Source: Eubacteriales bacterium (GTDB lineage: Bacteria; Bacillota; Clostridia; Oscillospirales; JAAYXM01). Taken from it: a stretch of DNA of 64,000 nucleotides. The stretch is taken from the NCBI GenBank assembly GCA_045586595.1, contig JAZNAQ010000022.1, forward strand, positions 1,605-65,604, in the 5' to 3' direction. The translations under genes and the position numbers were made by a program. Below the pieces are notes generated by a model. The model ran no database searches and was not told the DNA's origin. It worked only from the letters and a program-made list of their open reading frames with translations. Positions 9,724 through 63,127 of this stretch are shown piece by piece (positions within the stretch are counted from its first letter, which is position 1; the number at the start of each line of letters is the position of its first letter).

Positions 9724-9752
9724 TTTACTTCAACGGCTTTTTTTGGTATAAT
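9724..9752 (+). promoter_or_regulatory. Putative sigma-A promoter of tRNA-Ala
   Basis: TTTACT (9724-9729), 17 nt spacer, then extended -10 TGgTATAAT (-10 hexamer at 9747-9752), about 20 nt upstream of the tRNA 5' end. Confidence 0.5.
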
Positions 9753-9773: not shown

Positions 9774-9849
9774 GGGGGCGTAGCTCAGCTGGGAGAGCGC
9801 TGCGTTCGCAACGCAGAGGTCAAGGGTTCGATCCCCTCCGTCTCCACCA
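9774..9849 (+). tRNA. tRNA-Ala (anticodon CGC), CCA encoded
   Basis: Cloverleaf folded by hand: acceptor GGGGGCG/CGTCTCC with the G3:U70 alanine identity pair, D arm GCTC-AGCTGGGA-GAGC, anticodon arm CTGCG-TTCGCAA-CGCAG, T loop TTCGATC, then ACCA. Confidence 0.9.
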
Positions 9850-9911
9850 AACAGATAACGTACCATCCGCAAGGTTGGTGCGTTTTTTGTTTGGTGCCCG
9901 TGACGGTGAGG
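9830..9911 (+). repeat. Direct repeat copy A (tRNA-Ala from G57 to CCA, plus terminator, plus 23 nt)
   Basis: 82 nt repeated at 9981-10062 with a single mismatch (C9898 vs T10049). The period is 151 bp. Confidence 0.95.
9859..9888 (+). terminator. Intrinsic terminator after tRNA-Ala
   Basis: Hairpin CGTACCATCC-GCAA-GGTTGGTGCG followed by TTTTTT. An identical copy lies at 10010-10039. Confidence 0.7.
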
Positions 9912-9980
9912 GAGCGAACAGGACGGCGGCTCGCAAGCCGTAAAAAGGCTGCCGGTGGCAGGCTTTTTAGTCCGCGGGCA
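9912..9980 (+). ncRNA. Conserved structured core element (copy 1), function unknown
   Basis: 69 nt unique spacer between the repeats, homologous to 32571-32635. P1 is GGAC(9921-9924)/GTCC(9970-9973). Inside are hairpin H1 GCGGCT-CGCA-AGCCGT and GC-rich hairpin H2 AAAAAGGCTGCC-GGT-GGCAGGCTTTTT. It then runs into the duplicated tRNA 3' end (9981-10000). Confidence 0.4.
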
Positions 9981-10062
9981 GATCCCCTCCGTCTCCACCA
10001 AACAGATAACGTACCATCCGCAAGGTTGGTGCGTTTTTTGTTTGGTGTCCGTGACGGTGAGG
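9981..10062 (+). repeat. Direct repeat copy B (orphan tRNA-Ala 3' fragment G57-CCA, plus terminator copy)
   Basis: See copy A. There is no tRNA 5' half upstream of it. Confidence 0.95.
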
Positions 10063-10145
10063 AATCTAATATAACTTCTATTGCAAAAAGAGACAATATA
10101 ATGTATACTTAATTAAAAGAAAACACGCAAAACGGAGGAAATCAA

Positions 10146-32390: not shown

Positions 32391-32419
32391 TTGACAAAGC
32401 CTTATATTTTTTGTATAAT
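32391..32419 (+). promoter_or_regulatory. Consensus sigma-A promoter of the CAU tRNA
   Basis: TTGACA (32391-32396), 17 nt spacer, TATAAT (32414-32419), 17 nt upstream of the tRNA 5' end. Confidence 0.75.
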
Positions 32420-32436
32420 ATATAAGCTTAATATTT

Positions 32437-32513
32437 GGGCCTTTAGCTCAGTTGGCTAGAGCTCCCGGCTCATAACCGGATGGTCCTGGGTTCGAGTCCC
32501 CGAAGGCCCACCA
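32437..32513 (+). tRNA. tRNA with anticodon CAU (elongator Met or lysidine-type Ile2; not distinguishable by eye), CCA encoded
   Basis: Acceptor GGGCCTT/AAGGCCC, D arm GCTC-AGTTGGCTA-GAGC, anticodon loop CTCATAA, T loop TTCGAGT, then ACCA. Confidence 0.88.
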
Positions 32514-32522
32514 AAGAAGATA
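32494..32522 (+). repeat. Direct repeat copy A (CAU-tRNA G57 to CCA, plus 9 nt)
   Basis: GAGTCCCCGAAGGCCCACCAAAGAAGATA is repeated exactly at 32636-32664. Confidence 0.95.
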
Positions 32523-32553
32523 ACACCGATTTTTATCGGTGTTATCTTTTTTT
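32517..32553 (+). terminator. Intrinsic terminator after the CAU tRNA
   Basis: AAGATAACACCGAT-TTTT-ATCGGTGTTATCTT plus T5. Confidence 0.85.
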
Positions 32554-32563
32554 GTGGCATCCT

Positions 32564-32635
32564 GAGGTGGACGAGAACAGCACGGCGACTTGTCGTAAAA
32601 AGGGTGCCGGTGGCACGCTTTTTAGTGCGCGGGTA
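32564..32635 (+). ncRNA. Conserved structured core element (copy 2), function unknown
   Basis: Homologous to 9904-9980. Shared blocks are TGA-N-GGTG, AACAG, P1 GCAC(32580-32583)/GTGC(32625-32628), H1 GCGA-CTTG-TCGT, H2 AAAAAGGGTGCC-GGT-GGCACGCTTTTT, and CGCGGG-YA. It is followed by the tRNA 3' duplicate. Confidence 0.4.
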
Positions 32636-32664
32636 GAGTCCCCGAAGGCCCACCAAAGAAGATA
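32636..32664 (+). repeat. Direct repeat copy B (orphan tRNA 3' fragment)
   Basis: Exact 29-nt copy with no tRNA 5' half preceding it. Confidence 0.95.
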
Positions 32665-32702
32665 CCGCACAGGAGATCAAAATTTCCGTGCGGTATCTTC
32701 TT
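32656..32702. terminator. Hairpin terminator after the orphan tRNA 3' fragment (also abuts the stop of the convergent EAL gene)
   Basis: AAGAAGATACCGCAC...GTGCGGTATCTTCTT, a 15-bp stem. Confidence 0.6.
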
Positions 32703-34096
32703 TAGTTTTTGTCATGCTTATATCTTTTCATAAACAGCTCACTCTCTTCAACCGGAAGCGGTTTCGAATAATACCATCCCTGAACATAATCGCAGTCTGA
32801 TTCTGATACAAGTTTGTTTTGTGCTTCGGTCTCAACACCCTCGCAAATCACCTTAATATTCAGATTGTGCGCAAGAGCGATAATGCCGGAGAAGAGGTCT
32901 CTTCCTTTTTTCGTATCCGTCTTAAGAAGAATATCGCGGTCGATTTTGACAACATCAATCGGATAATCGCAAAGATTAACAAGTGAAGTATATCCGCTTC
33001 CGAGGTCATCGAGATAGACATTAAAGCCGAGCGCCTTGCACTTTGCAACATTCTCCGTTGCCAGTTCCCTGTCTTTTTCCATCGCATCTTCGGTAATCTC
33101 AATAACAAGCTTTGACTTGTCAAATTTATAGCTGTTTGCAATCTCTGTAAATCTGTCAATAAAATTCTCTTCTGAGAGCGTAATTCGCGTGAAGTTACAG
33201 GAAATCATAATATCTTTACATTCTGTATCATTCCACTTTTCAAGCTGACGGCAGACAAGCTCAAACATATAAAAATCAAGTTTACTGATGAGGCCCACCG
33301 TTTCCATGTTTTCTATATACATACTCGGTGGAAGTAACCCCTTGTCCACACTATTCCATCTTGAAAGAGCTTCGGCGGATACTATTTTTTTCGTTTTGTT
33401 GTCAACAACAAACTGCAGATACATCTTAAACTCGTTGTTTTCAAAGCCCTTGAGTATATTCTCTGTAATTTGTTTTTCTTGCTGAATCGAACTCATAGAA
33501 TTGGAATCGCAATATACAATCTGTTTTTCGGTACCAAAAATCCTGTTGCAGTTTTTTCTCAGATTAAAAAGCAAAAGCTCACAGTTTAAATCAGATTCTG
33601 AAAGCGGATATACTGCTGCGTAGAACATAAGCTTTCGCCTTCTGTCTTCTGTCTTTCCAAAAGCATTGAGCGCACCCATAAGCTCATTCAGCCTTTTTTT
33701 GGCGTTCTCATCATCCGTCGCACGGAAAGCAAAAGCAAACCCGTTTTCGGTAATTCTTGCGGAGATTTCTTTTTCTTCTGTATGCTCCGTCAAAACAGAT
33801 GCGGCATACTTCAGCACATCCGTAAATGAATTTCCGTCGTGATACGGTCTTAAATAAGTGCTGTCCAAAATAATATACGCAACATGATACGTACTTCTCA
33901 GGATATCACCTATAGTGTACTTGAAATGATACTTAAAAAACTGCAGGTTCCCTATCCCTGTTTCAGTATCCGTCATTTTGCCTGCTTCTTTTTCTTTTTT
34001 TACTTGCCTTATTTTCACGAGCAAAACCGCTATCAAAACGAGCAAAACAGGAACAAGAACAAACCTTATCAAAATTTTATCCATCGGACTGATCAC
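32702..34096 (-). CDS. Membrane-anchored c-di-GMP phosphodiesterase (degenerate GGDEF-like region + EAL)
   Basis: 464 aa with an N-terminal TM helix and EAL motifs (SAEALSRW, DDLGSGYTSL, VKIDRD, EGVE). Confidence 0.8.
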   Translation of the reverse strand: MISPMDKILIRFVLVPVLLVLIAVLLVKIRQVKKEKEAGKMTDTETGIGNLQFFKYHFKYTIGDILRSTYHVAYIILDSTYLRPYHDGNSFTDVLKYAASVLTEHTEEKEISARITENGFAFAFRATDDENAKKRLNELMGALNAFGKTEDRRRKLMFYAAVYPLSESDLNCELLLFNLRKNCNRIFGTEKQIVYCDSNSMSSIQQEKQITENILKGFENNEFKMYLQFVVDNKTKKIVSAEALSRWNSVDKGLLPPSMYIENMETVGLISKLDFYMFELVCRQLEKWNDTECKDIMISCNFTRITLSEENFIDRFTEIANSYKFDKSKLVIEITEDAMEKDRELATENVAKCKALGFNVYLDDLGSGYTSLVNLCDYPIDVVKIDRDILLKTDTKKGRDLFSGIIALAHNLNIKVICEGVETEAQNKLVSESDCDYVQGWYYSKPLPVEESELFMKRYKHDKN

Positions 34097-34160: not shown

Positions 34161-34208
34161 AAAAACTGCAACAATAAGAAGCCCTATTACGGGCCCTTAT
34201 TATTGCAG
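34161..34208 (-). terminator. Intrinsic terminator after the GGDEF gene
   Basis: On the minus strand, a roughly 18-bp stem CTGCAATAATAAGGGCCC...GGGCTTCTTATTGTTGCAG followed by U5. Confidence 0.75.
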
Positions 34209-34327
34209 CTGGACTGGCATAGTATAAAACCTTAGCCTCTTGGCTTTGCGTCGCCGACTTTCGCCGGTTTTGCCAAATGTTCAATTTTCACCAGTTTATC
34301 ACACTAAAGCATTTTTGTCAAACACTT

Positions 34328-61385: not shown

Positions 61386-62774
61386 TTAATCCTCCTCAAA
61401 CACTATCTTATTCAGCGCGTTGATATACGCTCTGATGCTTGCTGCCACAATATCAGTAGAGATTCCGTTGCCGGAATAGAGTTTTCCATCCACGCGAAGC
61501 TTTACAACAGCCGAGCCAAGAGCCTCCTTGCCCTCAGTAACGGCATGGATCTGGAAATCGTCAAGCTCATAGTGATAGCCTATGCACTGTTCTATTGCAC
61601 GAAATGCTGAGTCTACAGCGCCGTCACCCATACTTACGCCGCAGAGAATTTCGTCACCGCACTTGAGCGTAACCTGTGACATGGCACTTGTGAGATTGCC
61701 GCAGTTTGTGGTGTAGCTCTCAAGGTGATATGTTGACGGTGCCTGCATGGCAGAGCTTGCTATAAGTGCCTCAAGCTCCTTCGCGCCGACTGTGCTCTTC
61801 TTCTCGCATACCTGCACAAGAGCACGGTATACATTTCCGTTATCCTCATCGGAAAGGTCATATCCGAGAACCTTTGCAGCCTGTGCAACATCTGAAAGCG
61901 TACTGTCGCAATCAAGAACGATTTTTTTCTTCTCACTTGCAGCATCTGCGCTCTCGTAAGCATCATGATTTATCTTTCGGAGCATCTCATCTACACTTGA
62001 ATGTATCTGGGTAGCTACAATAGAAGTGGATATGCCGAGAGCTTCGCCTCTTGCGCTTATTGCGTCAGAGAGCTCGCCTACAGACAAAACATTCTTTCCT
62101 GCCATCGCACACTTAAGCCCGTCAGCCCCTGCCTTTACCGCAGCAATAGCAGTTGCAACAGCCATATTGATACTGTCGGATACCTGAACATATACCGATG
62201 TGTTTACCTGAGCCTTTATTGCAGCGGTAAGCTCTGCAATCTCCTCAGGAAGTGAAACTCCGGCGTCGTCGCAGATAGTTACGATTCCTGCGCCGCTTGC
62301 CTCAGCCGCTTTAACTGCATTAATAATGAAGTCACGGTCTGCACGAGTTGCATCAAGTGCAACAAATTCGACATCGGGGCAGAATTTCTTTGCCTCGGCT
62401 ACAAGCTCTTCAATCTTTGTAAGCATCTTATCTGCCTTGAGATGATATATATACTCCATCTGCACCGTAGAAGTAGGGAGGGCTACCTGAAGGCGCGGCT
62501 TTGCTGCATCTTTTATACACTCCCATGCGACAGACACCTCGTCTGCCGTAAAGCCGACAGGGAGAGCGACTGCGCTGCTTTTAACGTTTGATGCAATCGT
62601 TTTATAAATAATTGTATCCTCGCGAACATTCTTTATTGGCGCAAGCTCAACAGCATCCGCACCGAGAGAATCTGCACACGCCGCTATAGCTGTTTTCTCT
62701 CTGAAGAGCAGTGAAACCTCACGGTCTTGTGAAAGCTCCTTTAACGTGATGTCAGTAACTAAAATTTTCTTCAT
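61386..62774 (-). CDS. 2-isopropylmalate synthase (LeuA) homolog lacking the catalytic and metal-binding residues but retaining the C-terminal LeuA regulatory domain
   Basis: 462 aa, collinear with recalled B. subtilis LeuA. DTTLRDGEQ is replaced by DITLKELSQ, HCHDD by QVSDS, and GIGERAGN by GKNVLSVG. The C-terminus (TEGKEALGSAVVKL...GISTDIVAASIRAYINALNKI) matches the LeuA_dimer domain. Confidence 0.7.
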   Translation of the reverse strand: MKKILVTDITLKELSQDREVSLLFREKTAIAACADSLGADAVELAPIKNVREDTIIYKTIASNVKSSAVALPVGFTADEVSVAWECIKDAAKPRLQVALPTSTVQMEYIYHLKADKMLTKIEELVAEAKKFCPDVEFVALDATRADRDFIINAVKAAEASGAGIVTICDDAGVSLPEEIAELTAAIKAQVNTSVYVQVSDSINMAVATAIAAVKAGADGLKCAMAGKNVLSVGELSDAISARGEALGISTSIVATQIHSSVDEMLRKINHDAYESADAASEKKKIVLDCDSTLSDVAQAAKVLGYDLSDEDNGNVYRALVQVCEKKSTVGAKELEALIASSAMQAPSTYHLESYTTNCGNLTSAMSQVTLKCGDEILCGVSMGDGAVDSAFRAIEQCIGYHYELDDFQIHAVTEGKEALGSAVVKLRVDGKLYSGNGISTDIVAASIRAYINALNKIVFEED

Positions 62775-62820: not shown

Positions 62821-63127
62821 AAAACGCTTTCATCTCTTTGTTATCCTTTAATAACTCAAAGAGACGAAAGCGTTAAAACTCAAGTATTTAAACCTTTCGC
62901 GGTACCACTCTTTTTCATCCTACGGCGAGGATGCACCTCAGGTGCTGACACACCTTGACTCTGTTACGGGAGCTCCCGTCCGCCCCTACTCTCTTTCAAT
63001 TTCACGGCAGCCGCTCCGTGGTGAGTTCAACGAGGCTAACCCAATGCCTTGCACCAACCGGCATCTCTCTGCGCGGGTATAAGCTTTTCGCATACTATTC
63101 CACATCATCGCGTTTGTTTTCAATTTG
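62821..63127 (-). promoter_or_regulatory. T-box riboswitch, specifier CUC (Leu)
   Basis: Promoter TTGACA (63162-63157), 17 nt spacer, TATAAT (63139-63134). Stem I has GCGAUGAUGUGG, the AGUA S-turn, AGAGAG and a GGUGCAA distal loop. Textbook specifier loop GAA-CUC-A-CCAC (plus 63023-63025). T-box AGAGUGGUACCGCGAAAGG (62896-62912). Terminator AACGCUUUC...GAAAGCGUU plus U4 (62821-62874). Confidence 0.9.

Follow-up and report, generated by a model that had tools for sequence, protein, structure and literature searches.

Geneless ~150-bp units with a conserved folded core at the 3' ends of tRNA and tmRNA genes in Eubacteriales

Integron attC sites and the attP(+) site of CTX phage are imperfect hairpins with bulges at conserved positions, and their structure is conserved above their sequence. 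REP/BIME repeats and the palindrome-associated elements of the IS200/IS605 type are small, non-coding and hairpin-based, lie after terminators and contain conserved hairpin mismatches. Islands that integrate into tRNA and tmRNA genes regenerate the target gene and displace its 3' fragment (Islander-type, PMC4383910). The units described here follow a single plan: A1 (tRNA nucleotides 57-76), a terminator hairpin (Term1), A' (an imperfect inverted copy of A), a core of 61-66 nt and A2, the second copy of nucleotides 57-76. They resemble the islands in that the target is split and regenerated by element sequence with the displaced 3' fragment at the far end, that tmRNA is among the targets and that copies accrete in tandem. 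Unlike the islands, a unit measures ~150 bp and is geneless, carries a tRNA-specific inverted copy and a covarying three-helix core, and has an integrase neither within it nor nearby. Integrase-less relatives of the islands include cis-mobilisable elements and tycheposon remnants (covered in part by bioRxiv 10.1101/2020.12.28.424599). The ssrA-specific islands of Dehalococcoides are kilobase-sized and carry a CcrB-like serine recombinase module; unlike the present units, they are described without mention of a hairpin, stem-loop or inverted repeat (PMC3146451). With attC and CTX attP(+) the units share the imperfect bulged hairpin, tandem arrays and an integrated order of inverted copy, loop and direct copy or target hybrid, whereas the stem of a unit is the target tRNA's own 3' end and varies with the tRNA, and the proposed crossover would fall either where the A':A2 stem meets its loop or at the foot of the A1-Term1-A' hairpin. 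Size, hairpins and mismatches are shared with the REP/BIME and IS200/IS605 elements, and one helix of the core, P3, is by itself REP-like in another genome; strict linkage to tRNA and tmRNA genes and long target-derived direct and inverted repeats set the units apart, and no RAYT or TnpA gene was seen in the loci examined.

In the 64,000-nt stretch analysed here (the window), the only tRNA genes detected by ARAGORN and Rfam are tRNA-Ala(CGC) at 9774-9849 (+) and tRNA-Met(CAT) at 32437-32513 (+). Each has its own promoter (9724-9752 and 32391-32419, respectively), and the element has none. A preliminary description of the Ala locus reported an 82-nt repeat with one mismatch, a period of 151 nt and a start at G57 of the T-loop, and all of these are present in the sequence. 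A repeat search of the window places the direct repeat at 9830-9918 / 9981-10069, beginning immediately 3' of GGGTTC; C9897 versus T10048 is the one mismatch across its first 82 nt. The first copy opens with A1 (9830-9849, +), which spans G57 to CCA, and continues into Term1 (9850-9891, +), a hairpin of the type GTACCAnCC-loop-GGTTGGTGCG-T run whose palindrome arms (9845-9868 / 9873-9896) reach into the CACCA of the tRNA. A' (9892-9915, +; TGGTG-ccc-GTGACGGTGAGGGAGC) is bulged and terminates at the complement of G57. The core (9916-9980, +; covariance-model match 9916-9981, 91.5 bits) runs through GAACA, helix P1 (9921-9924 with 9970-9973), the P2 hairpin (9926-9941), the P3 hairpin (9942-9968, +; AAAAAGGCTGCC-GGT-GGCAGGCTTTTT) and GCGGGCA, and repeat comparison places A2 directly after it (9981-10000, +). 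A second, truncated unit follows at 10001-10062 (+), with a second Term1 and the start of a second A', of which only the first 20 nt are present (10043-10062) before the likeness stops at 10062. The "151-bp partial duplication" is one complete unit plus one truncated unit, or ~1.5 tandem copies. The preliminary description captured the repeat geometry but overlooked A', the covarying three-helix core and this 1.5-unit nature. Its "unique 69-nt insert" (9912-9980) exists as sequence but not as a natural unit: the conserved core is 9916-9980, and the 24 nt upstream of it (9892-9915) are the inverted copy of the tRNA 3' end and part of the element.

A related insert with the same G57 boundary had also been claimed for a second tRNA, and the tRNA-Met locus bears this out. 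An exact 29-nt repeat, 32494-32522 / 32636-32664, starts at G57 with a spacing of 142 nt, and the inserts of the two loci are ~80% identical on alignment. A 32-nt degenerate insert pattern matches the window twice, at the Ala and Met loci only, where shuffles predict 0 matches. The Met locus holds a single unit, composed of A1 (32494-32513, +, from the direct repeat), Term1 (32514-32553, +; palindrome arms 32508-32530 / 32535-32557), A' (32554-32574, +; GTGGcatCCTgaGGtGGACGA), which is complementary to the tRNA-Met 3' end, the core (32575-32635, +; covariance-model match 32575-32636, 82.3 bits) and A2 (32636-32664, +), in which nucleotides 57-76 are followed by nine more repeated nt (AAGAAGATA). 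This core has P1 as GCAC/GTGC, a short P2 and a P3 with GTGCC/GGCAC. Term2 (32652-32706, +; arms 32652-32670 / 32688-32706), a hairpin unlike Term1, lies 3' of A2 and adjoins the 3' end of a convergent EAL-domain gene. The genes neighbouring the two loci encode SMC, FtsY, pyruvate kinase, a dicarboxylate/amino-acid symporter, the gal operon and the EAL protein. The earlier statement that the window has no integrase stands as far as the analysis reached: the 20 ORFs examined around both loci are housekeeping, and tblastn detects no large serine recombinase homologue in the window. Two leader RNAs were also recorded in the window. A c-di-GMP-I riboswitch (34201-34284, -, 62.5 bits) lies directly 5' of the EAL (weak GGDEF) gene (32702-34096, -), thus placing a c-di-GMP-sensing leader on a c-di-GMP phosphodiesterase gene whose 3' end abuts the terminator beyond the Met-locus element. 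A T-box leader (62857-63117, -, 107 bits) lies 5' of a 462-aa ORF (61386-62774).

The two loci belong to a family found in many gut and rumen Clostridia. A P3-pattern scan of GTDB, limited to a single genome for each species and with the stem positions left free, returned 77 loci (loci are cited below by their L numbers), and this pattern under-samples divergent members such as L061, L057, L072 and L076. The complete main-family architecture is present in ~46 units from 20 assemblies, which a covariance model raises to ~22 assemblies; the possibility that the core is private to two loci and without conservation in relatives, entertained in the preliminary description, is thereby set aside. Hosts are metagenome-assembled genomes (MAGs) of Oscillospiraceae/Eubacteriales from human, goat and buffalo gut, together with the isolate Angelakisella massiliensis. 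The core lies ~90-100 nt 3' of the tRNA gene on the same strand, and within a tRNA cluster the element invariably comes after the final gene. The main targets are tRNA-Ser (TGA, GGA, GCT), Ala (CGC, GGC), Met, Val, Tyr, Lys and Leu, as well as tmRNA. Divergent versions lie 3' of tRNA-Pro and another tRNA-Ala. The targets number 11 tRNA species plus tmRNA. Subfamilies with longer or different cores (L009/L016/L021/L047, L072, L076, L061 and L057) keep the plan unchanged, with A' running to the complement of nucleotide 57, then GAA.., a CCGGTGG-type hairpin enclosed by a closing helix, and the tRNA 3' end, which resumes at nucleotide 57 (59 in L057). Cores cluster by tRNA type across species, and no identical cores were found at different tRNAs within one genome among the family copies, so recent tRNA-to-tRNA movement is not evident, a point against a mobile element. 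The copies also differ from miniature inverted-repeat transposable elements (MITEs): the inverted repeats (A'/A) vary by tRNA, the direct repeat ranges from 7 to >60 nt, and copies occur at tRNA and tmRNA 3' ends only, unlike dispersed MITE copies. Against Rfam 15, the tRNAs alone reach the gathering threshold, and the core has no match even at E up to 10. Pattern scans and blastn detected no core copies in viral contigs, phage records or plasmids. A single metagenome match to the junction pattern lies inside a coding region with no nearby tRNA and was rejected as chance. Full-text literature searches returned no description of the element, which does not in itself prove that none exists; its novelty lies in the small size (~150 bp, geneless), in an inverted copy matched to the tRNA and in a folded core that is conserved.

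The first bases of the core, GAAC, extend the inverted T-loop, and its last are GCGGG(T/C)A. Its helices are the closing P1, the variable hairpin P2 and the P3 hairpin with an almost invariant loop, CCGGTGG. This fold is backed by covariation. Across 24 distinct cores, P1-P3 are paired in 97.6% of cells, compared with 33-50% when partners are slid, and eight core pairs have changes on both sides; P1, for example, occurs as GGAC/GTCC, GCAC/GTGC and GGGC/GCCC. The P3 stem positions left free in the scan are complementary in every case, and the P3 mismatch persists as such, as G.G in almost every copy and as A.C in L079. G-U pairs in the core occur on the tRNA-sense strand only, six of them at one position. 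P3 itself scores as a bidirectional terminator in the main family, and its A/T tracts are missing in some subfamilies.

A' is specific to the tRNA beside which it lies. The A':A duplex averages -18.9 kcal/mol for cognate and -13.6 kcal/mol for non-cognate combinations, and cognate pairing ranks top among the alternatives in 12 of 18 units. A' tracks the Watson-Crick complement of the tRNA 3' strand, not the tRNA's 5' strand, and is bulged at conserved sites, with 2-4 nt after TGGTG/GCGG and, in most units, an extra A opposite nucleotide 62/63. Mismatches between A' and A are mainly transversions (65 of 79) without wobble bias, and a wobble test of strand gives 7 versus 7, the remainder being transversions. 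Folded as single-stranded DNA, the whole unit reaches z = -8.5 (Ala) and -6.8 (Met) relative to shuffles. GTTC (nucleotides 53-56), A1, Term1, A' and GAAC together form one 90-nt hairpin with GTTC:GAAC at its base, and the core forms a three-way fold of its own. Conserved A':A bulges, covarying helices and a strong single-strand fold are features of folded sites of the attC/attP(+) type. A tRNA-like cloverleaf or aminoacylatable minihelix was considered and rejected: A' corresponds to the complement of the 3' strand and not to the tRNA 5' strand, position 3:70 of the Ala copy is T.T and the CCA is paired. GC skew is negative across the whole + strand of the window, placing both tRNA genes on the lagging strand and head-on to replication, and does not support a lagging-strand-template orientation of the folded (tRNA-sense) strand.

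The boundaries of the repeat are equally regular. GGGTTC precedes the upstream copy in 24 units, so the repeat always starts at nucleotide 57, with a spacing of 142-155 nt; both window loci are included, and the attL/attR-like geometry that the preliminary description saw at the Ala locus thus recurs throughout. In these units the repeat is exactly 20 nt long, to CCA, in five cases, 21-35 nt in nine and at least 53 nt in the others. A second class of units has a repeat of 7-11 nt (nucleotides 57-63 and slightly beyond). As read from the sequences, these two discrete boundaries, seven bases apart, would match what a tyrosine-recombinase overlap leaves. Arrays of 2-3 tandem units and derivatives with internal deletions are both present in the family.

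Copies are polymorphic at the strain level. At a tRNA-Met locus with an identical DUF4364 neighbour, L085 is filled and L084, L086 and L087 are empty. Upstream, L085 and L086 agree at every one of 3178 nt (100%), and downstream their identity is 99.5%; they differ in the 143-nt element and also in the terminator stem-loop 3' of the A2 position. Since this terminator differs as well, tract replacement, that is, allele exchange by homologous recombination, fits better than simple insertion. Neither a free or circular form of the element nor a clean pair of empty and filled sites was seen in the sequences compared, which counts against an integrative element. The tRNA-Met site is also empty in another species (L082/L083), and in L079, where a neighbouring protein is 98% identical to that of the window organism, the element is present but its Term1 and A' are strongly divergent. 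In most complete units A2 matches the tRNA 3' end exactly, despite differences in Term1 and A' even between close relatives; such identity amid drifting neighbouring sequence could also signal function, again at the expense of the mobile-element reading. In the close relatives L080, L081 and L079, contigs stop within tRNA-Met or right after the element, which suggests that short-read assemblies break at the repeat. Another small repeat, whose ends are inverted (ACTTATTACC..CTTCACTATTCC ... GGTAATAGTGAATAAGG), occurs in different genomes at L084 3190-3310, L005 2650-2760 and L061 5775-5850, immediately 3' of the tRNA-Met, tRNA-Ser and tRNA-Ala terminators, respectively. Exchange of element-bearing alleles may draw its right-hand homology from this repeat.

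Several tRNA and tmRNA genes that carry the element also host larger insertions. An all-against-all BLAST of locus ORFs yielded no recurrent protein family beside the units, only local synteny and spurious ORFs within the element. The L054 locus has a 3.6-kb island with tRNA-Met on one side and half a Term1, a degenerate A' and a core on the other; the island encodes an HTH protein and two ORFs without a Pfam match, read as restriction-modification genes. At L005, tRNA-Ser is separated from a decayed A copy by AraC and creatininase genes. A cassette platform with cargo was considered for L054 and L005/L032 and rejected: the extra genes lie between the tRNA and a degenerate A copy or half Term1 and so were inserted independently into the tRNA 3' end, upstream of a resident copy of the element. 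The junctions of iteron-bearing islands are at the CCA end of A1 or A2; in L011 and L012 the island lies after A2, which can offer islands a further attachment site. Large-serine-recombinase prophages are found at L031/L088, L089, L090, L050 and L047. For L031/L088, L089 and L090, the prophage-host joint lies in the last 8-11 nt of ssrA or the tRNA, upstream of Term1, and in L090 a Term1-type terminator adjoins the prophage without a core. The large serine recombinase, which lies directly upstream at three loci, was rejected as the element's enzyme: these are prophage integrases, their joint is elsewhere and L090 is coreless. The prophage family at L088 8147-9712, L089 10001-11734 and L090 10001-11692, whose large serine recombinase uses the acceptor 3' strand of ssrA or a tRNA, has two further features. 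Some members carry a reverse transcriptase and bAvd, which are genes of diversity-generating retroelements, and the recombinase reading frame continues into the host-derived tRNA end and terminator.

Parts of the unit also occur on their own. The P3-type hairpin alone (ATGCAAAAAGGCCGCC-GGT-GGCGGGCTTTTTGCAT, often after CCCATAGG) is a REP-like dispersed repeat in the Lachnospiraceae MAG UBA7729. Its loci there number at least 14 (L015, L017, L023, L027-L029, L034, L036, L040, L052, L063, L064, L068 and L070); they lie right after gene terminators without tRNA linkage, and no transposase was seen nearby. In mouse-gut 'Alphaproteobacteria' MAGs (L065 3930-4170, -; also L075 and L042), the first 24 nt of tRNA-Met are duplicated ~230 nt upstream of the intact gene, followed directly by a hairpin with 27-nt identity to the window P3, a mirror-image, 5'-side arrangement in another phylum. 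A conserved terminator (GTACCAGCC-GNAG-GGTTGGTGCG-T run), in which one fixed position is mismatched (G.T or A.A), lies 3' of many tRNAs, for example at window 9860-9884 and L090 11545-11575. As the L090 copy lacks a core, this terminator may be a repeat element in its own right.

Our favoured reading, held tentatively and with slightly less than an even chance, is that the units are miniature, non-autonomous integrative elements targeting tRNA and tmRNA genes, with recombination in the T-loop by a trans-acting recombinase, probably on a folded substrate. The unit would enter a tRNA gene by site-specific recombination in the T-loop, with a crossover segment that begins at C56/G57 and probably covers nucleotides 57-63. 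It would replace the tRNA 3' end and terminator and displace the old 3' end downstream, as tRNA-integrating islands do. A precedent exists in phage Ms6, where strand exchange likely occurs in a 7-bp T-loop segment and attP changes retarget the phage to other tRNA-Ala genes (PMC1762012). The short class of repeats, 7-11 nt, has the size of a tyrosine-recombinase overlap and counts in favour of this reading. We infer the recombination at nucleotides 56/57, the trans-acting enzyme and the folded substrate: an element without a recombinase gene would need an enzyme acting in trans, and A' and the core would let the unit fold on itself almost fully, as the 90-nt hairpin with its GTTC:GAAC base at the crossover plus the three-way junction. 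Given this near-complete self-folding, the substrate is probably a folded strand or an extruded structure, like integron attC or CTX-phage attP. Counting against the integrative element, no recombinase was found in or adjoining any unit, and Term1 is followed directly by A'. An att site of the classical double-stranded kind has no need of A'. All integrative elements known to us are far larger than 150 bp. A related account, rather unlikely in our estimate, has either a dumbbell-shaped unit recombining as a folded strand at the T-loop of any tRNA that it matches, or a module that the host retains as an RNA or DNA copy of the tRNA 3' end and that gives islands a second landing site, as used by the two islands after A2 in L011 and L012. 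In the dumbbell, the tRNA 3' end and its inverted copy would pair as the stem, with the terminator hairpin at one end and the three-way junction at the other. A unit of this kind would parasitise a recombinase acting in trans and be the tRNA-directed counterpart of integron cassettes or of CTX-phage attP.

Alternatively, the unit may act as RNA. It could be a structured non-coding RNA made from the tRNA 3' trailer by read-through of Term1, in which A':A2 would form an acceptor/T-arm-like helix that imitates the 3' strand of the upstream tRNA and is capped by the core; such an RNA might be a mimic, decoy or sponge for readers of tRNA 3' ends, or might control tRNA maturation as a rival of the tRNA's own 3' half for pairing with A'. 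The covariation of P1-P3 with G-U pairs confined to the tRNA-sense strand, the complementarity of A' to its cognate tRNA, the preservation of A2 in most complete units despite divergent Term1 and A' between close relatives, and the presence of the element at orthologous tRNA-Met and ssrA loci of several species all speak for it, as does a weak, sub-threshold Rfam match to permuted tmRNA over the T-arm, Term1 and A' (E = 0.1). Like permuted tmRNA (RF04321), the unit has a T-arm, 3' acceptor strand and CCA, an intervening hairpin and a 5' acceptor-like strand; unlike it, the tRNA is intact and there is no tag frame, and the match scores 18 bits against a gathering threshold of 47. However, the element has no promoter and a terminator separates it from the tRNA; the main-family P3 is itself terminator-like, with a U-tract upstream of the P1 3' strand; the A':A mismatches are mostly transversions and show no wobble bias; truncated, tandem and tRNA-detached copies are common; the core has no Rfam 15 counterpart; and the 3' CCA would be paired, unlike that of a tRNA mimic. 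On this balance we consider a trailer RNA unlikely. The preliminary description raised a different origin, in which the core would be the end of ordinary integrase-encoding islands and the units deletion remnants. Such remnants would be the joined ends of islands or prophages that formerly occupied these tRNA genes. Their direct repeats are attL/attR-like, and the same tRNA and tmRNA 3' ends are used by the L054 and L005 islands and by the serine-recombinase prophages. These islands and prophages nevertheless join elsewhere, the prophages in the acceptor 3' strand upstream of Term1 and the iteron islands at the CCA end, upstream of an intact or half-intact resident element. The element thus resides at these loci and is not the terminus of those islands. 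Moreover, more than 40 units in ~22 assemblies share one precise architecture with an empty Term1-A' gap and covarying helices, which independent deletions would not be expected to produce, and the core is absent from the viral contigs, phage records and plasmids searched. Deletion remnants are, in our judgement, improbable.

IS91 targets GTTC, and families of the IS200/IS605, IS91 and REP/RAYT types have hairpin ends. The unit could accordingly be the remnant of a hairpin-dependent single-strand DNA transposon (REP/RAYT-like, or non-autonomous of the IS200/IS605 or IS91 type) that inserts 3' of the T-loop GTTC and carries a tRNA 3' end along. In keeping with this, insertion is exactly 3' of GGTTC in every unit, the core has an invariant hairpin loop, covarying stems and the retained G.G (A.C in L079) mismatch, a 25-27-nt hairpin is dispersed after terminators at the UBA7729 loci, and in the mouse-gut MAGs the hairpin adjoins a 5' partial duplication of tRNA-Met. 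Yet no HUH transposase or RAYT gene was found in ~500 kb of loci examined, such families leave no long direct repeats and need no 20-nt inverted copy of the target, the folded strand in the window is not the lagging-strand template by GC skew, and the right end is GGTA, not GTTC; we regard this origin as quite improbable. Slippage during replication or a tandem duplication, as a local accident confined to a single tRNA locus, has next to no probability. In isolation the Ala locus does resemble a 151-bp tandem duplication, but the same core and boundaries recur at the window tRNA-Met and at dozens of tRNA and tmRNA loci elsewhere, and the family data refute such an accident. The preliminary description had argued against random slippage, and the repeat family with its fixed nucleotide-57 boundary at tRNA genes of many genomes agrees with that view.

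The known occupants of tRNA and tmRNA genes are kilobase-sized and carry their own integrase, whereas here a geneless 150-bp unit shows the same geometry at about a dozen genes, each unit bearing a direct and an inverted copy of its target. In practical terms, assemblies break at these tRNA genes, with contigs of close relatives ending inside the element, and island-finding software will mis-score it as the att sites of missing islands. If mobile, the unit would be the smallest known tRNA-targeting element and would imply a trans-acting recombinase that reads the universal T-loop, probably on a folded substrate. If functional, it would represent a new class of tRNA-linked structured RNA or DNA.
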